Source: Myxococcota bacterium (lineage in GTDB: Bacteria; Myxococcota; JACRCW01). Taken from it: a stretch of 64,000 nt of DNA. This document shows, piece after piece, positions 30,390 to 40,118 of the stretch. Under the pieces are notes generated by a model. The model saw only the letters and a program-made list of their open reading frames with translations, searched no databases and was not told where the DNA came from. Location of the stretch: contig JBFMGU010000015.1 of assembly GCA_040752415.1 (NCBI GenBank), positions 1 to 64,000 on the forward strand, written 5' to 3'. The translations under genes were made by a program, and so were the position numbers. Positions within the stretch are counted from its first letter, which is position 1, and each line of letters begins with the position of its first letter.

Positions 30390-30860
30390 TCAGCGGAAGA
30401 AGGTCGCGTGACAGGCCACGCACGTTTCCGTCAGTTGCCCGAAGGCCCGGGCGATATCCGCGTCATTCCCCTTGGCCGCCGTCCGGGCCAAAACCCCGGC
30501 GCGCTCCTGCAGCAGGTCCTGGATGATGAAGAACCGCTCGGGAATCTCCGCGTTGACTTCGTTGCCGGTCATGCCCAGCGGCCGCGCCACCTTGGGCTCG
30601 CTGGCAATGCTGTCCGCCAAATGCTCCGTCTGATCATGCTCCAACAGCAGCACCGACCAGATCAGCTCCTCCATGTCGTCGCCGTGGCGCATCATGCGCG
30701 GCCACACCACCACACGGGAAACCTCGTTGAGGTCCTCGCCGCCCGCCCGCGGCGGCGGAATGTCCGTGGCCACGTCCTGGTTGGCCCAGGCCTGCACCCC
30801 CATCGACGCAGCCACTCCCAACGCCAACCCGAAGAACAACCACCACGCGCGCGACTTCAT
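30390..30860 (-). CDS. Exported class II (c'-like) cytochrome c
   Basis: Signal peptide, helical body, single C-terminal CVACH haem motif. Confidence 0.8.
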   Translation of the reverse strand: MKSRAWWLFFGLALGVAASMGVQAWANQDVATDIPPPRAGGEDLNEVSRVVVWPRMMRHGDDMEELIWSVLLLEHDQTEHLADSIASEPKVARPLGMTGNEVNAEIPERFFIIQDLLQERAGVLARTAAKGNDADIARAFGQLTETCVACHATFFR

Positions 30861-30916
30861 GGCGAACGCTCCAGTCCGGGACGGGGTCGACGTCACCTCG
30901 TCGCCGCGGAGGGGTG

Positions 30917-30937: not shown

Positions 30938-31261
30938 TCAGCGTTGCATCCGCTCCGCCAAGAACACATGCCGCCCCGCCTTCATGGCGCGCAGGCCCTG
31001 GACGGTGATCCGTTGACCGGTCACGACGTCCTGCCCGGCGACCAGGTGCACCTCCAACACGTCATCCTGCGTGCGGAGCATGAGCTGCACGCCCTCCGGC
31101 ACGCGCTTGAGGGCAACCACCTCTCCCTGCACCGTCTCCTCGCGGGTGACATCCCGTGCGTTGCTGGCAGCGGGCTTCTTCCATCCGTCCAGCGCCGCCG
31201 CCGTGGCGGGACCCAGCGGAACCGCAAGCGTGACGAGGACGAACAGCCCGTACACAGCCAT
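30938..31261 (-). CDS. Small exported hypothetical protein (OB-fold-like beta pattern)
   Basis: Signal-like hydrophobic N-terminus; TVQGEVV...L.LRT...LEVHL...GQRITVQG. Confidence 0.55.
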   Translation of the reverse strand: MAVYGLFVLVTLAVPLGPATAAALDGWKKPAASNARDVTREETVQGEVVALKRVPEGVQLMLRTQDDVLEVHLVAGQDVVTGQRITVQGLRAMKAGRHVFLAERMQR

Positions 31262-31382
31262 GTTTTCACGCGACATGATCAACGACCTCGCTGAATTGCG
31301 TCGTCGTTTCGCAAGAAACCTGCCATCATTCCCGAGCTGGGGTGATGGCGTGATGCGCAACGTGTGCGGGTGGAGGAAAACA

Positions 31383-31856
31383 ATGCGCTGGTTGGTGATG
31401 GCGACGTTGACGCTGGTGCTCGCCTGTGAGCGCTACGACGAGCCCAACCGTCCCCTGCCGCCGCTGCAGCTGGAGCATGTGGATGGGCGAGCGCTGGACT
31501 TGTCGTCGCTGCGCGGGCGCCCGGTGGTGATCAATCTCTGGTTGCCAGGTTGAGCGTCCTGTCTCCGGGAGTTGCCCGGAGTGGAAGCGGTCCGACGGGA
31601 ATTCCAGCCCCGTGGCGTGGAGTTCATGGCGCTCTCGTTGCACCCGGTGGCGGATGAGGTGGTGCGCGCCGCCAGCAAGCATGGTGTGGGCTCGACGGTG
31701 GCGTTGGCGCGCGGTGAGGTGCTGGGACCCCTGGGGTTGCGCGTGGTGCCGGCCACGGTGTTCGTGGATGCCAAAGGCGTGATGGTGGCGTCCGCCGAAG
31801 GAGAACGGAGCGAGGCGTTCTTCCGACGACGGGTGAAGGCACTACTTGCGGAGTGA
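31383..31856 (+). CDS. TlpA/ResA-like thiol-disulfide oxidoreductase lipoprotein with in-frame TGA (probable selenocysteine, UxxC)
   Basis: RBS GGAGG; LVLAC lipobox; LSSLRGRPVVINLWLPG-TGA(31551-31553)-ASCLRELP; cis-Pro loop VVPATVFVD; both halves in the same frame. Confidence 0.88.
31554..31588 (+). promoter_or_regulatory. Candidate bacterial SECIS hairpin
   Basis: Perfect stem CTCCGGG (31563-31569) / CCCGGAG (31575-31581), loop AGTTG; 16 nt between UGA and loop; imperfect lower stem. Confidence 0.7.
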
Positions 31857-32135
31857 GGCGCGCGCGGATTCCAGCCAGCGGTCCTGCTGTTCCGGCGTTC
31901 CCTCCTCGAACTCACGCAGGTGCACCGGGCACATGAAGCCGATGACGACGCCGCGGTGCGTGGCGCGGAACGTGGGATTCAACGGGTCTCCCGCAACAGG
32001 CTCGCCGGAAACGGGACACACGCGGTTGCCCAGCACCGGCGCGTCGACGAGGGTGGGCCGCACCTCCGTGGATGGGGGCTCGGTGCACGCCGCGGCAGTG
32101 GACATCAGGAAGGTCACCAACAGGAACGTACGCAT
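31842..32135 (-). CDS. Small lipoprotein with YHS/TRASH-like metal-binding motif
   Basis: MRTFLLVTFLMSTAAAC lipobox; NRVCPVSGEPV...HRGVVIGFMCPVH..EF. Confidence 0.7.
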   Translation of the reverse strand: MRTFLLVTFLMSTAAACTEPPSTEVRPTLVDAPVLGNRVCPVSGEPVAGDPLNPTFRATHRGVVIGFMCPVHLREFEEGTPEQQDRWLESARASLRK

Positions 32136-32140
32136 CGTCG

Positions 32141-32890
32141 TCACCAGAACATGATCACATAGCCACGGCCGCCCCACTCCCAACCCAACGAAACATGCGG
32201 CACCACGCCCAACGCCGCGCCTGCCACGAGCAGCATCCACACTCCCGAGATGGGGAGCAGCAGCGAGGGAATACGTTGCAGGAGGGAGACGCGGTCCAGG
32301 CGCAGCATCCGCGCCAGCATCATGACGCTGCCCAAAGGGACAGTGGTCATCAGCACCAGCAACAACATCACCAGCGCGCCGTGCAGCGGACTGCGCGTGC
32401 TCGCGGCCACCACCAACGCCCACGCCACGATCATGCACGGCAAGCCCGCCATGATGGTACCGAGCACCCACGAGCGACCGATGCTGCGTCCGTCGGCGAG
32501 CGCCACCAGGCGGGTCATCACGCGCGGCAGCAAAGGCCGTTGCCCCAACGTCACCACGTCTGACCGGCGCTGGAGGTGACCACGCAGCGGCCAGAGGATC
32601 ATGCCCAGCCCCAGCACGACGGAGAAGTAGGGCGCGGCGTGTTGCAGCACGTCGGAGATGGAGCGGCCGAGCAGACCCGCCAGCGCACCCAGCAGCGCGT
32701 ACACCGTGGCGCGACCGAGCTGGTACGCGGCGAGATGCGCCCCCACGCGACCCACGTTCGCGCCACGCGTGCAGCCGCCCAGGTCGAGCCCGAGCACCAA
32801 CGGCCCGCACATGCCCGCACAGTGGAACGTGATCCACAGCAGGCCCAGGCTGATGAGCTGCGCATAGGCAGCGCTGACGACGGCGTCCAT
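32141..32890 (-). CDS. DsbD_2 / TauE-SafE-like membrane protein associated with cbb3 clusters
   Basis: HCAGMCGP, YQLGR..Y..LGALAG, GLPCMIV motifs; multiple TM helices. Confidence 0.85.
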   Translation of the reverse strand: MDAVVSAAYAQLISLGLLWITFHCAGMCGPLVLGLDLGGCTRGANVGRVGAHLAAYQLGRATVYALLGALAGLLGRSISDVLQHAAPYFSVVLGLGMILWPLRGHLQRRSDVVTLGQRPLLPRVMTRLVALADGRSIGRSWVLGTIMAGLPCMIVAWALVVAASTRSPLHGALVMLLLVLMTTVPLGSVMMLARMLRLDRVSLLQRIPSLLLPISGVWMLLVAGAALGVVPHVSLGWEWGGRGYVIMFW

Positions 32891-33056
32891 GCAAGTTTCC
32901 CGGACGCTCCAGAGCAATCCTTGCGCCAGCTTTCCGCGCGTTGGGCCCTCACGCTCCAGCGCAACATCGCGCGCAACGGTTGCAGTCGTTCTTGCGTGCA
33001 ACGCAGGGGTTTCGGACGCGCCCCCCGACCTTCCCCCCGGGAATCCACATGTTGGT

Positions 33057-33073
33057 TCGGCACGGCGCGTGCT
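33057..33073 (+). promoter_or_regulatory. Candidate sigma54 promoter for the cco operon
   Basis: TCGGCACGGCGCGTGCT, GG-N10-GC; implies a very short leader before ATG 33087. Confidence 0.45.
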
Positions 33074-33086
33074 CAGTGCCGCGGCA

Positions 33087-35486
33087 ATGTCGTCCACCTG
33101 CCTGCATTGCCAAGGTCCCATCTCCGACGCGGACGCTCCGGGCGGTTACTGCTGCGTCGGTTGCGCCACGGTGGCGGAGTTGCTTCGCAGCCGCGGACTG
33201 GAGCGTTACTACGCGTTTCAATCCGTCGCTGGTCAGCCGGTGACGTTGTCCGCTCGCGCCCGAGACCAGGCGTGGCTGGAAGCGCCGCTGAAGGACGCGG
33301 AGGCGCGGGCGCACGGCGGGCTGGCGCACATGGACGTGGACGTGCAGGGGTTGCGCTGCAGCGCGTGCGTGTGGCTGCTGCGTGAGCTCTTCCTGCAACA
33401 GCCGGGCGGCGCGGAAGCCATCATCAATCCCGCGGTGGGGCGCGCCACGCTGACCTGGCAGCCGGGCCGGACGGATGTGGCAGCGTGGTGCCGTGACGTC
33501 GAGCGCTTTGGCTACAGCGTGGGTCCCGCGCGGAAGATGGAGGCCTCGCGCTCCGACCGCGTGCTCACCCGCCTGGGCATCAGCACTGCGCTCACCATGA
33601 ACTCCATGATGTTCACCATTGCGCACTACGTGGGCATGACCCCGTCCGACGGCGAGGTCTTCCACCTGATGCGCTGGTTGAACCTGGCGCTCAGCGTGGG
33701 CGTGCTGCTCATTGGTGGCTGGGAGTTCTTCTCGCGCAGCTACCTGAGCCTGCGCCAGCGCATCATTCCCTTCGACCTTCCCATCGCATTAGGGCTTTCG
33801 TTGGCCTTCGCCGGCTCGCTCCACGTCTTCGTGACGCGGCCGGACACGTTCTCCTACTTTGACACGCTCAACACCTTCACCACGCTGATGCTCGTGGGGC
33901 GGTGGCTGCAGGAGCGGGTGTTGGAGCAGAACCGTCGGAGGCTGCTGGCCAATGACGGCGTGGAAGGGCTGCTGGCGCGTCGGGTGCGCGAGGGGCGCGT
34001 GGAGACGGTGGCCGCGGAGAAGCTCACGCGCGGCGACACCGTGGTGGTTCCGCCGGGTGGGCTCCTGGTGGCGGACGGCATCCTCGTTGACGAGGGCGCC
34101 AGCTTCTCCCTGGACTGGATCAACGGTGAGTCCATCCCGCGCAGCTTCAACCCCGGACAGACCGTCCCCGCGGGCTCCTTCAACGCGCACGACCGCGCCG
34201 CGTTGGTGGTGCTGGACGTGGACTTCCGCGACTCCTCCCTGCTTCCGTTGCTGTCCCGTCCGCCGCAGGAGCAGGAGAGCGCGGATGACCCCATGCTGCT
34301 GCAGCGCCTGACGCGCATCTACGTGCCCGCGGTGCTCACGCTGGGGATGCTGGGCTTCCTGCTGTGGTTGCCCTCCGGCGTGGAGCGCGCGGTCGAGGTG
34401 ACGACGAGCCTGCTGGTGGTGACCTGTCCGTGCGCGCTGGGGCTGGCCATTCCGCTGGCATGGCAGCGCATGGCCGCGGCGTTGCGCCAGCGTGGGCTCT
34501 TTGTCTGCAACCCGTCGTTCATGGACCGCGCGGTGCGCGTGCGTCGCGTGGCCTTTGACAAGACCGGCACGTTGACGCTGGGCGCGCTGCGACTCGCCAA
34601 TCCGCAGGAGCTCACGTCGTTGAGCCCGGCGTTGCAGACCCTGCTGTACAACATGACCGCGCGCAGCTCGCACCCCCGCAGCCGTGCGGTGCACCAGGCC
34701 ATCCCCGCCGCGCACGCACGCTTCGACGCCTCCGTTTCCGTCGTGGAGCGGCCCGGCCTTGGGCTGGAGGCGCGGGACGCGCAGGGACGCCTGGTGCGCC
34801 TGGGCCTTCCGTCCTGGACCGGTGGGGTGCAGAGCTCCGACGAGGGCGTGTGGCTCTCCGTGGACCTGGCGGTGGTGGCGCGCTTCCGCCTGCAGGAGAC
34901 GCTGCGCTGGGACGCGCGCGTGGAGCTGGATGCGTTGCGCCGCGGCGGTCACGACGTGGTGGTGCTGAGCGGTGACGCCCCCGAGCGCGTGGACGACGTG
35001 GCGCGCGCGCTCAACCTTCCCGCCCGCGCCGCCGTGGGTGGACTGTCTCCGCAGGGCAAGGCGGAGTGGCTCCAGGCCCATTCCTCCGCGTCGGACACGC
35101 TCTTCATTGGCGACGGCGTCAATGACCGGCCCGGTTTCCGGGAAGCGCTCTGCAGCGGCACGCCCGCCGTGGACCACCCCGCGCTGAGCTGCGTCACCGA
35201 CTTCTACTACCTGACGCCTGGCATCGGTTGCGTGCGCACCGTGCTGGACGCTGCGCGGCAACTGCAACGGGTCACGCGGAACATCCGCAACGTGGCGCTG
35301 AGCTACAACGTCCTCGCCGTCAGCCTGTGCCTGGCGGGCGTGGTGACGCCGTTGATTGCCGCGGTGGCCATGCCCGCCAGCTCCATCTTCATCCTTGTCT
35401 ACGCCGTGCGTGGCACCACGCTGGCGTCCTCCCGCTCCGGGAAGGACGCGGAGCTGGCCACCGCCGCGGCACCGGTGACTGCATGA
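33087..35486 (+). CDS. ccoI: Heavy-metal (Cu) P1B-type ATPase, CcoI/FixI
   Basis: N-terminal CLHC..CCVGC, CSAC, GES, CPC, DKTGTLT, HP, GDGVND. Confidence 0.92.
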   Translation: MSSTCLHCQGPISDADAPGGYCCVGCATVAELLRSRGLERYYAFQSVAGQPVTLSARARDQAWLEAPLKDAEARAHGGLAHMDVDVQGLRCSACVWLLRELFLQQPGGAEAIINPAVGRATLTWQPGRTDVAAWCRDVERFGYSVGPARKMEASRSDRVLTRLGISTALTMNSMMFTIAHYVGMTPSDGEVFHLMRWLNLALSVGVLLIGGWEFFSRSYLSLRQRIIPFDLPIALGLSLAFAGSLHVFVTRPDTFSYFDTLNTFTTLMLVGRWLQERVLEQNRRRLLANDGVEGLLARRVREGRVETVAAEKLTRGDTVVVPPGGLLVADGILVDEGASFSLDWINGESIPRSFNPGQTVPAGSFNAHDRAALVVLDVDFRDSSLLPLLSRPPQEQESADDPMLLQRLTRIYVPAVLTLGMLGFLLWLPSGVERAVEVTTSLLVVTCPCALGLAIPLAWQRMAAALRQRGLFVCNPSFMDRAVRVRRVAFDKTGTLTLGALRLANPQELTSLSPALQTLLYNMTARSSHPRSRAVHQAIPAAHARFDASVSVVERPGLGLEARDAQGRLVRLGLPSWTGGVQSSDEGVWLSVDLAVVARFRLQETLRWDARVELDALRRGGHDVVVLSGDAPERVDDVARALNLPARAAVGGLSPQGKAEWLQAHSSASDTLFIGDGVNDRPGFREALCSGTPAVDHPALSCVTDFYYLTPGIGCVRTVLDAARQLQRVTRNIRNVALSYNVLAVSLCLAGVVTPLIAAVAMPASSIFILVYAVRGTTLASSRSGKDAELATAAAPVTA

Positions 35487-35661
35487 ACATCGTCCCGCTC
35501 ATGGTGTTTGTGAGCCTGATGCTGGTGGCGGCATCGCTCTTGCTCTTCGGTCACAGCATGGCACGCAAGGATCACCAGCACGCGGACCGCCTGGCCCTGC
35601 TGCCCATGACGGATTCGGAATCCCCCCGCGCGGAAGCGCAGGAAATTACGTCGGAGAAGAC

Positions 35662-35665
<4 letters not shown>
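35483..35665 (+). CDS. ccoS: cbb3 oxidase assembly protein CcoS
   Basis: Single-TM 60-aa protein (MNIVPLMVFVSL...DHQHADRLALLP) with ATGA overlaps on both sides. Confidence 0.8.
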
Positions 35666-37976
<2,311 letters not shown>

Positions 37977-37980
<4 letters not shown>

Positions 37981-38183
37981 TGTACGCCTGGTTCTACCAG
38001 CAGAGCTCCGTGCTGCATCTCCCGATTGCGGCGCTGATCATCTTCATGTGCGTGTTCCTGGGTGTCGTGGTGCGTGTGCTCCGGACCCCGGGCAAGAACG
38101 AGCAACAAACGCGGATGGCGTCCCTACCGCTCCAGGACGAGCCCCTTGCCACCCGCGGCATCATCGGAGGAAGCCATGACTGA
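37977..38183 (+). CDS. ccoQ: cbb3 oxidase subunit CcoQ
   Basis: Single TM helix followed by MASLPLQD; lies between ccoO and ccoP. Confidence 0.75.
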
Positions 38184-38745
38184 GAACCGCGTCCACCAGG
38201 AAGTCGACGGAATCGTGGAGGAGGACAACCAGCTCCCCAACTGGTGGCTCGCCACCTTTTTCGGGGCGATCATCTTCGCCTACGGGTACTGGCAGTACTT
38301 CCACGTCTGGCAGATTGGTCAGAGCCCCGCGCAGGAATTCGCGGCGTACCAGGAGACCGTGAAGCAGAAGCAGCCCGCGGGCGGCGGTGACAACGTCAAG
38401 CCCGACGTGCTCCTGGCCGCGGCCTCCGGACCGGAAGCGCAGCAGGGCGCGCAGATCTTCGCCGCCAACTGCGCGGCGTGTCATGGCAACGCCGGTGAGG
38501 GGAAGATTGGACCCAACCTCACCGACAGCTTCTGGCTGCACAACGGTGACCCGGTGAGCATCCACACCAGCATTGCCAACGGCTACCCGCTCAAGGGAAT
38601 GCCGGCGTGGAAGGCGGTGCTGGGCACGGAGAAGGTCACGCAGGTCACCGCGTACGTGTTGAGCCTGAAAGACAAGAACATTCCCGGCAAGCCGCCAGAG
38701 GGGGAGGCTCAGCCGGCCGCGCCGGGGAAGACCACGTCCCTCTGA
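38176..38745 (+). CDS. ccoP: cbb3 oxidase subunit III (monohaem)
   Basis: HQEVDGIVEEDNQLPNWW, CAACH, GPNLTD.FWLH, GMPAW. Confidence 0.92.
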   Translation: MTENRVHQEVDGIVEEDNQLPNWWLATFFGAIIFAYGYWQYFHVWQIGQSPAQEFAAYQETVKQKQPAGGGDNVKPDVLLAAASGPEAQQGAQIFAANCAACHGNAGEGKIGPNLTDSFWLHNGDPVSIHTSIANGYPLKGMPAWKAVLGTEKVTQVTAYVLSLKDKNIPGKPPEGEAQPAAPGKTTSL

Positions 38746-38753
38746 GTTGAAAG

Positions 38754-40118
38754 ATGGATGCCACCGTTCCGCCCACCACCGCACCCAGCAGTCGCGCCCT
38801 CCGTCCCGACGGGACCCGAGCCCGAATCCATCCCAAGGAGACGAACGGGCGCTATACGCGGCTACAACAGTGGCTCTATCCGGCGCTGATCCTGTTCTAT
38901 GCCGCACTGCCCTGGGTCCCGGTGGGCGGGCACCCGGCAGTGTGGATAGACATCCCGCAGCGTCGTTTCTACCTGTTTGGTCTCACGTTCAATTCCACGG
39001 ACTTCTACCTGGTGTTCTTCATCATCAGCGGGTTTGCCTTCTCGCTGGTGGTGTTGAGCGCGCTGGTGGGGCGGGTGTGGTGCGGCTACGCGTGCCCGCA
39101 GACCGTCTACATTGACGGCGTGTACCGGAAGCTGGAGCGGCTGGTGGAGGGAACCGCGCGGGAGCGCCAGGCGCGGGAGCAGGGACCTTGGACGGCGGAG
39201 CGCGTGGCCCGCAAGGCGCTCAAGCACGTGCTTTTCGTGCTGGTGTCCCTGCTGATTGCGCACGTGTTCCTGGCGTACTTCGCCACCGCGGAGGACGTGC
39301 TGGAAATGATGCAGCGCTCTCCCCTGGAGAATCCCACGCCGTTTGCCTGGGTCATGGCCATCACGGGGTTGCTCTATTTCAACTTCGGCTGGTTTCGGGA
39401 GCAGTTCTGCCTGGTGCTATGTCCCTATGGTCGCATGCAGTCGGTGCTGGTGGACCGGGACACGGTCACCGTGGGTTACGACGCGCTCCGTGGCGAGCCG
39501 CGCGGCAAGCTGAAGGGCGAGGCCCACGGGGATTGTGTGGACTGCCGCATGTGCGTGCAGGCCTGTCCGACGGGAATTGATATCCGCAACGGTATGCAGA
39601 TGGAGTGCATTGCGTGCGCGCACTGTGTGGATGCCTGCAACGAGGTGATGGTCAAGATTGGCAAGCCCACGGGACTCATCCGGTATGACTCCTTGGCCGG
39701 ACTGGAGCATGCCAAGCGGCAATTCTGGCGCCCGCGTGTGTACGGCTACATCGTGGCGGGTCTGGCGGGGCTGACGGCGTTGACGCTGGCGGTGAACCAC
39801 CGCAAGGCGTTCGAGGCGAATCTCCTGTGGGCCCAGGCCGCGCCGAGGACGGTGCAGGGTGAGCAGGTGGTGCACCGGATGGTGGTGCATCTCAACAGCA
39901 AGACGGCGGAGGCCCGGACCTACCAGCTCTCCCTGGACGCTCCCGAGGGTGCGCAGGTCATCCTTCCCACGCCCGCTCCCACGCTGGAGCCGTTTGGCAG
40001 CGTGCACCTCCCGGTGATGGTGGTGACGAGCAAGACGTCCGGGGGCGAGCGGAAGGTGACGCTGCACGCGAAGGATTCCGTGACGGGGGAGGTGCGGTCG
40101 GCGGTGCTGAAGCTATGA
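38754..40118 (+). CDS. ccoG: cbb3 accessory protein CcoG (4Fe-4S)
   Basis: GRVWCGYACPQT, CLVLCPYGR, CVDCRMCVQACP, CIACAHCVDAC. Confidence 0.95.
   Translation: MDATVPPTTAPSSRALRPDGTRARIHPKETNGRYTRLQQWLYPALILFYAALPWVPVGGHPAVWIDIPQRRFYLFGLTFNSTDFYLVFFIISGFAFSLVVLSALVGRVWCGYACPQTVYIDGVYRKLERLVEGTARERQAREQGPWTAERVARKALKHVLFVLVSLLIAHVFLAYFATAEDVLEMMQRSPLENPTPFAWVMAITGLLYFNFGWFREQFCLVLCPYGRMQSVLVDRDTVTVGYDALRGEPRGKLKGEAHGDCVDCRMCVQACPTGIDIRNGMQMECIACAHCVDACNEVMVKIGKPTGLIRYDSLAGLEHAKRQFWRPRVYGYIVAGLAGLTALTLAVNHRKAFEANLLWAQAAPRTVQGEQVVHRMVVHLNSKTAEARTYQLSLDAPEGAQVILPTPAPTLEPFGSVHLPVMVVTSKTSGGERKVTLHAKDSVTGEVRSAVLKL

Follow-up and report, generated by a model that had tools for sequence, protein, structure and literature searches.

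The stretch of DNA analysed here (the window; the first 64,000 nucleotides of contig JBFMGU010000015.1, from a Myxococcota bacterium) carries a gene whose single reading frame is interrupted by an internal TGA at codon 57. Translated through this codon, the frame reads MRWLV...LPG-U-ASC-LRELPGVE...VVPATVFVDAKG...LLAE and ends at a second TGA (31854-31856). ORF calling with table 11 cuts the gene into two pieces, 31071..31553 and 31572..31856. An earlier interpretation of the letters alone (the sequence-only reading) had noted both that the frame continues through the TGA at 31551-31553 and that the ORF track splits the gene, and we found both at these positions. The features of the locus are collected in Table 1.

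Table 1. Features of the predicted selenoprotein locus (positions in the window).
Feature	Position	Strand	Remarks
Shine-Dalgarno-like GGAGG	31372..31376	+	6 nt ahead of the ATG; read from the sequence
Predicted selenoprotein gene	31383..31856	+	157 codons including the putative Sec57, plus terminal TGA; ResA/TlpA-like thiol:disulfide oxidoreductase lipoprotein
Predicted lipoprotein signal peptide MRWLVMATLTLVLAC	31383..31427	+	Residues 1-15; lipobox LVLAC; Cys15 codon 31425-31427
In-frame TGA, predicted Sec57	31551..31553	+	Attacking position of UxxC (G-U-A-S-C); aligns with the first Cys of ResA WCxxC
Resolving Cys60 (TGT)	31560..31562	+	Invariant in alignment A2
SECIS-type hairpin	31563..31581	+	7-bp stem 31563-31569/31575-31581; loop 31570-31574; 9 nt after the UGA
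Pro123, cis-proline position of the thioredoxin fold (VVPATVF)	31749..31751	+	Invariant in A2; immediately ahead of modelled strand 124-128
DsbD_2/CcdA-type membrane protein, candidate electron donor	32141..32890	-	Pfam PF13386 DsbD_2, 104.8 bits

As judged by inspection, the product begins with a signal peptide that closes with a lipobox. Cys15, which follows small residues and a hydrophobic stretch, is invariant in all 24 sequences of alignment A2, and lipobox-type N-termini are present in most orthologues. Lipidation is predicted from these features, in keeping with the earlier claim of a lipoprotein. Alignment A2 also contains invariant residues on both sides of the UGA (C15, G35, G45, W53 and P55 upstream; C60, R62, P65, A83, L114, P116, P123 and G132 downstream), so that conservation at the protein level extends over both flanks, as expected of a selenoprotein gene. 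The sequence-only reading had placed the TGA at the attacking-Cys position of a thioredoxin motif with the resolving cysteine and the cis-proline kept; the invariance of Cys60 and Pro123 agrees with this.

A protein-database search with the read-through protein matched only its own 91-aa C-terminal fragment. As predicted-protein collections truncate such genes, homologues were collected by six-frame searches of 401 Myxococcota genomes. Among the 66 non-self matches at E ≤ 1e-20, exactly one TGA was present in 56 and none in 10; two weaker matches (G333 and G155) also contained a TGA, which brought the number of TGA-form genomes to 57 in all, counts that include the unpublished genome G195. The comparison of homologues proposed with the sequence-only reading was made on 51 non-self loci: the TGA occupied the column of the first Cys of CxxC in 49 of them and a Cys was found there in two (L022 and L076), to which 10 further Cys forms can be added. 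A contig search for related loci yielded seven, the closest of which (L051, 39% identity) carries the TGA, while the six others showed 24-48% identity in their best segment. The genome of the window itself contains a paralogue (C14:24383-24754, minus strand) with a TGA at the same column. The TGA might be a nonsense mutation or a sequencing or assembly error, in a pseudogene or in place of a genuine TGC or TGT, as the split by table-11 ORF calling and the lone database fragment would allow, yet this explanation is extremely improbable, since conservation of the column across other genomes, several of which are assembled as a single contig, excludes a sequencing error or a private nonsense mutation, and the paralogue and the conserved flanks also speak against it.

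The genes expected for selenocysteine insertion are present in the same genome. Profile matches for selA (531.2 bits), selB (283.5 bits), selD (304.7 bits) and tRNA-Sec (73.8 bits; anticodon tca (UCA) according to ARAGORN) all exceeded their curated cut-offs, and the four components that the earlier reading had proposed to look for were thereby all found. The selD gene carries one in-frame TGA of its own (..SSGG*AAKVGPG), followed by a 9-nt spacer, a 7-bp stem and a 5-nt loop (CGGGU), a geometry that it shares with the window gene. Across the TGA-form genomes, selB was over cut-off in 54 of 57, compared with a background of 272 of the 401 genomes, and the remaining three had selA at 513-558 bits. 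TGA is otherwise an ordinary stop codon in this genome: it closes 1465 of 1736 long ORFs of high GC3 as well as the window gene itself. A changed genetic code, in which TGA would be a sense codon genome-wide, was rejected on the basis of these 1465 ORFs.

The perfect 7-bp stem and AGUUG loop described in the sequence-only reading as lying 9 nt downstream of the TGA are indeed there. The hairpin (CTCCGGG stem, 5-nt AGTTG loop, CCCGGAG stem) forms the core of the minimum-free-energy fold; it is placed directly 3' of the UGA and has a small apical loop containing G, as is typical of bacterial selenoprotein genes; the G is at the second position of the loop, which also has a GU step. Its folding energy alone is unexceptional against the background of a genome with 69% GC (MFE -21.6 kcal/mol, z = -1.4, 23 of 200 shuffles folding as well), so that the case for a real hairpin rests on comparative data. 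When 51 TGA-bearing copies were compared (46 distinct rows), pairing held in 98.4% of cells, compared with only 10.6-57.5% when the partner was slid by 1-3 columns as a control. Compensatory changes were found in three of the seven stem pairs (17 cells), a score reached by none of 500 shuffles. The stem of the window gene, CUCCGGG/CCCGGAG, departs from the majority stem, GCUCGGG/CCCGAGC, at exactly these three covarying pairs, and all three differences are compensated despite the amino-acid changes that they entail. The hairpin of the paralogue (CUUCGGG/AGUUG/CCCGAAG) similarly differs from the window copy by a compensated change from C-G to U-A. All seven pairs were kept in 46 of the 51 TGA-bearing (Sec) forms, with six pairs in four and five in one, whereas the 12 Cys forms could make between two and six pairs and never all seven.

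For its stem the gene uses minor codons of the genome (CGG, UUG and GGA, amounting to 20.3%, 7.8% and 8.8% of their synonymous sets). The four inner stem pairs, which are invariant or nearly so, are uninformative either way, because the stem is partly constrained by the conserved peptide C-x-R-E-L/F-P. An Rfam scan of 31450-31700 matched no family, even at E ≤ 10. The core motif of the hairpin occurs eight times in the genome, and in the two TGA genes alone is it preceded by a TGA at a distance of 15 nt; the idea of a general repeat was dropped for this reason.

We considered the possibility that the UGA simply terminates translation, either with a 56-aa lipopeptide and a 94-aa fragment re-initiated at the TTG at 31572 as products, or with a hairpin that serves regulation or pausing and has nothing to do with Sec. 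The ORF 31572..31856 does begin with TTG, and the folding energy of the hairpin is unexceptional. Such a split would, however, sever one thioredoxin domain right at the active site and part residue 57 (U or C) from the signal peptide, whereas the structural model is that of one domain (pLDDT 90.8) and the Cys-form homologues are uninterrupted by a stop. The hairpin moreover goes with the TGA, being complete in most Sec forms and in none of the Cys forms, and the genomes with TGA forms also have selB or selA. Termination is, on this evidence, scarcely credible.

A further possibility is that the UGA is read through, though normally as another residue, for example as Cys or Trp by a near-cognate or mis-charged tRNA. 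Sequence analysis of the kind used here does not distinguish the identity of the inserted residue. The arguments against this view are the complete Sec machinery, whose selD gene depends on Sec decoding in its turn, the hairpin geometry common to the UGA of selD, and the presence of TGC or TGT in place of TGA in lineages in which selA and selB were not detected. The closest Cys forms come mostly from such genomes; neither gene was found in the Cys-form genomes G176, G113, G001 and G268, which are 92-99% complete. Other Cys-form genomes do have Sec machinery (selA and selB in G247 and G330, selB in G361 and G348, selA in G244), so the link between the residue used and the machinery is a tendency rather than a rule. 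Insertion of a different residue is thus given only a slim chance, and it is very likely that the UGA at 31551-31553 encodes selenocysteine.

The protein is predicted to adopt a thioredoxin fold. Its matches to Pfam AhpC-TSA (44.1 bits, gathering threshold 26) and Redoxin (43.4 bits, threshold 26.6) were both over cut-off. In profile comparisons, the family aligned with ResA (4nmu, 1.1e-22), with U57 opposite the first Cys of CxxC and Glu63 opposite the conserved Glu of ResA, and with TlpA (1jfu, 1.2e-10). In the AF2 model (pLDDT 90.8), helix 58-77 begins right after U57, which puts the UxxC motif at the N-terminal end of helix 1; the cis-Pro loop is in place as well. The top Foldseek matches to the model were all ResA, the best being 1st9 (TMt 0.90, rmsd 1.5 Å). 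These matches and the Pfam assignments sustain the TlpA-like nature claimed at the outset. No NCBIfam model reached its cut-off (ResA NF002854, 56.8 against 170 bits; TlpA NF047696, 44.2 against 230; the WAxxUGC selenoprotein NF041054, 50 against 300). From its sequence, the protein is predicted to work like ResA/TlpA, and it is filed as neither.

The gene lies about 300 bp from the DsbD_2 gene, which adjoins a cluster for a cbb3 oxidase and a CcoI-type protein; the context comprises DsbD_2, a CcoI-like P-type ATPase, a fused ccoNO, ccoP and ccoG. When seven neighbour proteins were sought in 31 loci with flanks of ±1.5-3 kb, none was found. Ten neighbour proteins were likewise absent within ±5 kb of three orthologous loci and from the ±3 kb or ±1.5 kb flanks of two more, and the neighbourhood in G190 consists of unrelated genes. 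With no neighbours shared among orthologues, we abandoned the derivation of a function from a conserved operon, and the cbb3/DsbD_2 neighbourhood is at most a hint specific to this genome as to electron donor and clients.

Could the protein be a true selenoprotein with another activity, namely a Sec-based peroxidase or other small-molecule reductase at the cell envelope? Its best Pfam match is AhpC/TSA, the available portions of PMC13188914, PMC1794560 and PMC1088965 call the family 'Prx-like', and a variable genomic context is what one expects of a general stress enzyme. On the other hand, the motif is the thioredoxin-type UxxC and not the peroxiredoxin TxxU, a contrast drawn in the part of PMC1088965 available to us. 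The closest structures and profiles (ResA, DsbF, CcmG/DsbE and TlpA) are all of protein thiol-disulfide oxidoreductases, and the ResA-type Glu after CxxC is conserved. We therefore regard a peroxidase as unlikely, though clearly less so than the alternatives discussed above, and consider that the enzyme is probably a protein-disulfide reductase of the ResA/TlpA type. A role specifically in the maturation of cbb3 oxidase and copper proteins or of cytochrome c is conceivable, though doubtful.

Taken as a whole, the reading that we favour, a single intact selenoprotein gene for an exported lipoprotein of the ResA/TlpA type, has in our estimation a probability of about 0.9. The 157-aa exported, lipid-anchored selenoenzyme split by gene callers, as proposed from the sequence, is supported by the conservation of the TGA, the Sec machinery, the lipobox and the ORF split. 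The following mechanism can be proposed. The UGA would be read as selenocysteine by SelB with Sec-tRNA(Sec), and the hairpin beginning 9 nt after the UGA would recruit SelB. The 157-residue pre-lipoprotein so formed would be cleaved after its signal peptide and lipidated on Cys15, and the mature protein would presumably be anchored on the outside of the cytoplasmic membrane or within the periplasm. Sec57, at the N-terminus of helix 1, would be the attacking nucleophile of the U-x-x-C centre and Cys60 would resolve the mixed selenenylsulfide. Three conserved residues (Arg62, Glu63 and Pro65) and the cis-Pro123 loop would make the active site ResA-like and complete. Most probably the enzyme would reduce disulfides in extracytoplasmic client proteins, and it might be re-reduced through a membrane protein of the CcdA/DsbD type, of which the nearby DsbD_2 protein is one.

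The apparent stop is almost certainly read as selenocysteine, and the enzyme, divided in two by gene callers, is of a kind described before. The value of the finding lies mainly in annotation: gene callers split or drop the gene, and an envelope redox system is then annotated minus one catalyst. At least 57 of the 401 sampled Myxococcota genomes call for this correction, as does the second paralogue in this genome. The homologues also make up a clean natural data set for the constraints on bacterial SECIS elements, since an RNA structure with three covarying stem pairs is here superimposed on coding sequence, and one suited to the study of Sec/Cys exchange alongside the loss of selA and selB; it bears, too, on the reasons that an exported disulfide reductase might have for using selenium. 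Neither the known kinds of selenoprotein nor what is known of Sec decoding is changed.

Joining these observations, one may more tentatively still suppose an undescribed clade of lipid-anchored ResA/TlpA-like selenoproteins in largely aerobic Myxococcota (57 of 401 genomes), with an almost invariant SECIS element (nnnCGGGAGUUKCCCGnnn), no curated NCBIfam model and several Sec/Cys switches mostly in step with the loss of the Sec machinery; we think this broader view rather unlikely to be correct in full. If it were, the reason for keeping Sec might be that selenolates remain reactive under the oxidising conditions of the envelope, and the enzyme of the window might have been recruited to a DsbD_2/CcoI/cbb3 maturation module, where it would provide a selenium-dependent step in assembling the respiratory oxidase.

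The novelty implied by the sequence-only reading was overstated, since Prx-like and TlpA-like thiol:disulfide oxidoreductases with UxxC are already among the selenoprotein families listed in the available portions of PMC13188914, PMC1794560 and PMC1088965. According to the same portions, Prx-like members (PF00578, UxxC) have been predicted in Geobacter, Syntrophus, Desulfotalea and marine metagenomes, and Myxococcus xanthus is named once, beside Anaeromyxobacter, in a supplement table of PMC1794560. A full-text literature search for Myxococcota selenoproteins, in which supplements are mostly uncovered, gave no article on prokaryotic selenoproteomes among the matches listed. The window protein has the PF00578 domain and the UxxC motif that define the Prx-like family in the table of PMC13188914, as far as available, and it shares with that family, compared by description only, the Pfam family, a Sec placed first in UxxC and a SECIS hairpin directly downstream; it differs in that the copies described here are Myxococcota lipoproteins. 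With the TlpA-like (cd02966) thiol-disulfide isomerase-like selenoproteins of marine metagenomes, likened from their descriptions in the available parts of PMC13188914 and PMC1088965, it has in common a UxxC on a TlpA-like thioredoxin fold.

NF041054 also describes a ResA-like selenoprotein of thioredoxin fold. The match to it is weak (50 bits, short of the cut-off of 300), and the window protein has U-x-x-C (U-A-S-C) rather than U-G-C, and 157 aa against a model of 354 positions. ResA of Bacillus and TlpA of Bradyrhizobium are membrane-anchored extracytoplasmic thiol-disulfide reductases that act in the maturation of cytochrome c and oxidases. The window protein resembles ResA in structure (the 1st9 match above) and in its C/U-x-x-C-x-x-E-x-P layout with a cis-Pro, and TlpA somewhat less closely (1jfu/4txo, Foldseek TMq 0.73); like both, it is predicted to be extracytoplasmic and tethered to the membrane, and its gene stands here beside DsbD_2 and a cbb3 cluster. 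It is, however, only about 25% identical to ResA, and the oxidase context is not conserved among the orthologues of its gene. In contrast to both ResA and TlpA, it would attack with Sec rather than Cys and be anchored by a lipid rather than by a transmembrane helix.

The gene at 31383-31856 (+) reads as a single frame of 157 codons and a stop, with TGA (31551-31553) as codon 57 in the context ...VVINLWLPG-U-ASC-LRELPGVE.... Standard ORF calling instead gives two ORFs, 31071..31553 and 31572..31856, as expected from the sequence-only reading, which had carried the frame through the TGA. A Shine-Dalgarno-like GGAGG lies 6 nt upstream of the ATG. The protein begins with a short signal of the lipoprotein type, MRWLVMATLTLVLAC, and most orthologues start with a sequence of the type M-R-R...L-x-[GA]-[AG]-C. 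We estimate at about 0.93 the probability that this is a Sec-encoding gene, the predicted product being an exported, lipid-anchored ResA/TlpA-like UxxC oxidoreductase. The claim of a hidden selenoprotein was borne out by the Sec machinery of the genome, a conserved TGA column and a covarying hairpin.

The TGA could also be explained by a sequencing error, by a nonsense mutation private to this genome or by a gene that is truly split. When 401 Myxococcota genomes, among them the own genome, were searched in six frames, 66 non-self matches reached E<=1e-20; exactly one TGA lies in 56 of them and none in 10. Two weaker matches (G333 and G155) also contain it, which brings the TGA form to 57 genomes; leaving out the unpublished genome G195, which is counted here, gives 55 of 65 matches and 56 genomes. 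The TGA coincides with the first Cys of CxxC in 49 of the 51 non-self loci read, within the motif P-x-U-x-x-C-x-R-E-[LFV]-P, and is replaced by Cys in the other two (G001 and G176). In a 24-sequence alignment, residues are invariant both upstream (the lipobox C15, W53, P55) and downstream (C60, R62, P65, P123, G132) of the TGA. This conservation of the column and of its flanks therefore excludes all three explanations. The two weaker matches (L105 in G333, L106 in G155) belong to a TlpA-like group that is farther removed and also has the TGA (FFLPG-U-LPC-QREVP); the stem of L105 differs yet stays fully compensated (CAGCGGG/AGGUU/CCCGCUG), and the outermost pair of L106 is G·G.

Genome-wide reassignment is ruled out, since TGA terminates 1465 of 1736 long high-GC3 ORFs in the own genome and is therefore a normal stop. 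The assembly (11.0 Mb in 520 contigs, 96.8% complete; the window is on contig C57) contains all four genes looked for, selA (531.2 bits), selB (283.5 bits), selD (304.7 bits, with one internal TGA in the context SSGG*AAKVGPG) and tRNA-Sec (73.8 bits; anticodon tca by ARAGORN), and the organism is predicted to be able to decode Sec. The selD gene (C171:7395-8327 (+), locus L001) also encodes a selenoprotein (SSGG-U-AAKVGPG), and downstream of its UGA come a spacer of 9 nt and a 7-bp stem capped by the 5-nt loop CGGGU, a geometry that matches the hairpin of the 31383-31856 gene.

That hairpin sits where it had been placed from the sequence, and the minimum-energy fold is built around it. The fold energy by itself is unremarkable (z = -1.4, with 23 of 200 shuffles as good) in this 69% GC genome, and Rfam gave no family match to the region. 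Covariation was assessed by aligning 51 TGA-bearing copies without gaps, which gave 46 distinct rows. The seven proposed pairs were formed in 98.4% of cells, versus 10.6-57.5% when the partner was slid by 1-3 columns. Double-sided changes occurred at three pairs in 17 cells (G-C/C-G, C-G/U-A/A-U and U-A/C-G/G-C), and the covariation score was reached by none of 500 shuffles. Compared with the majority stem GCUCGGG/CCCGAGC, the window stem differs at all three outer pairs, each change being compensated even as the protein sequence shifts (Ala to Leu, Glu-Leu to Gly-Val). Little or no variation is seen at the four inner pairs, which coincide with the conserved R-E-x-P peptide and are uninformative. 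The stem uses codons that are minor in the own genome (CGG, 20.3% of Arg; UUG, 7.8% of Leu; GGA, 8.8% of Gly). All seven pairs are kept in 46 of the 51 Sec forms, six in four and five in one, and none of the 12 Cys forms examined has seven (2-6 each). The hairpin tracks the TGA and is predicted to be under selection as RNA.

A TlpA-like paralogue with TGA at the same CxxC column is present on contig C14 (24383-24754 (-), locus L107; 34% identical; ...NIWYEY-U-PVC-LRELPEVE...). Its hairpin, CUUCGGG/AGUUG/CCCGAAG, is that of the window with one C-G pair changed to U-A. The core motif occurs eight times in the own genome, with a TGA 15 nt upstream only in these two genes. The paralogue has a signal peptide without the lipobox Cys and a C-terminal extension.

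Features of the selenoprotein gene region
Feature	Position	Strand	Remark
Cytochrome c' gene	30390-30896	-	
112-aa ORF, signal-peptide-like N-terminus	30941-31276	-	no Pfam match; divergent from selenoprotein gene
Hairpin, 5' arm CUCCGGG	31563-31569	+	starts 9 nt after UGA
Hairpin, loop AGUUG	31570-31574	+	
Hairpin, 3' arm CCCGGAG	31575-31581	+	
Small Cys-rich putative lipoprotein, 97 aa, MRTFLLVTFLMSTAAAC...	31842-32135	-	no Pfam match
DsbD_2/CcdA-type membrane protein	32141-32890	-	
CcoI-like P-type ATPase, ATPase-cat_bd domain	33087-35486		
Fused ccoNO, COX1+FixO	35662-37980		one 772-aa ORF
ccoP	38062-38745		
ccoG	38754-40118		

Over the 401 genomes, selB exceeded the cut-off in 272; of the 57 with the TGA form, 54 were among these, and the other three (G335, G384 and G329, each in 510-1380 contigs) carry selA at 513-558 bits. 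Neither selB nor selA was found in the Cys-form genomes G176, G113, G001 and G268 (92-99% complete). Among other Cys-form genomes, selA alone was found in G244, selB in G361 and G348, and both genes in G247 and G330. The closest Cys-form orthologues, L076 (G176) and L022 (G001), retain six of seven possible stem pairs, as if the SECIS had been decaying since Sec recently gave way to Cys. In a maximum-likelihood tree of 63 domains, Cys forms appear at several places among Sec forms; about seven label changes are needed, and well-supported branches force at least three. As the tree is rooted only at its midpoint, the direction of change is not proven. Repeated Sec/Cys exchange, in most cases accompanying the loss of Sec decoding, would account for the pattern, and such behaviour is described for bacterial selenoproteins in PMC1794560.

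The protein matches Pfam AhpC-TSA (44.1 bits) and Redoxin (43.4 bits), both above cut-offs, and its family profile matches the solved structures of ResA (4nmu, 1.1e-22), DsbF, CcmG/DsbE and TlpA (1jfu, 1.2e-10). U57 takes the place of the first Cys in CxxC, and Glu63 falls on the Glu conserved after that motif in ResA. In the AlphaFold model (pLDDT 90.8, pTM 0.85), helix 58-77 directly follows U57 and Pro123 lies just ahead of strand 124-128. By structure it comes closest to ResA entries (1st9: TMt 0.90, rmsd 1.5 Å), which are ahead of TlpA complexes with ScoI and CoxB. No NCBIfam orthologue model passed its cut-off (ResA 56.8/170, TlpA 44.2/230, WAxxUGC selenoprotein 50/300), so the protein is predicted to work like ResA/TlpA without being filed as either.

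The selenoprotein gene adjoins a cluster for cbb3 oxidase and its assembly (32141-40118), a setting that suggests, weakly, a DsbD_2-fed reductase for oxidase or cytochrome maturation. No own-genome neighbour was matched near orthologues; the search covered flanks of ±1.5-3 kb at 31 loci, ±5 kb at three orthologous loci and shorter flanks at two more. The G190 orthologue is surrounded by unrelated genes, and the specific client and electron donor are therefore only weakly indicated. The 112-aa ORF shares a 106-bp intergenic region with the selenoprotein gene. The 97-aa protein, whose gene is convergent and overlaps the 3' end of the selenoprotein gene by 15 nt, contains two Cys-Pro-Val motifs (VCPVSGEPV and FMCPVH) and may bind metal as part of the copper/cbb3 module.

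Many Myxococcota share the selenoprotein, whose gene is routinely mis-called. It matters for annotation and as a clean data set for SECIS/coding overlap and Sec/Cys exchange. Among the papers listed by a full-text search for myxobacterial selenoproteins, none treats prokaryotic selenoproteomes, and supplements may list myxobacterial members. UxxC selenoproteins on a TlpA/ResA-type fold are established predicted families, named in PMC1794560 and PMC1088965: the former lists a Prx-like thiol:disulfide oxidoreductase for Geobacter, Syntrophus and Desulfotalea, and the latter a 'Prx-like protein' with a UXXC motif and a 'thiol-disulfide isomerase-like protein' from the Sargasso Sea. Going by the published descriptions, the UxxC motif is common to these families and to the window gene. 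The window gene adds a member to this already known kind of selenoprotein, not a new mechanism.
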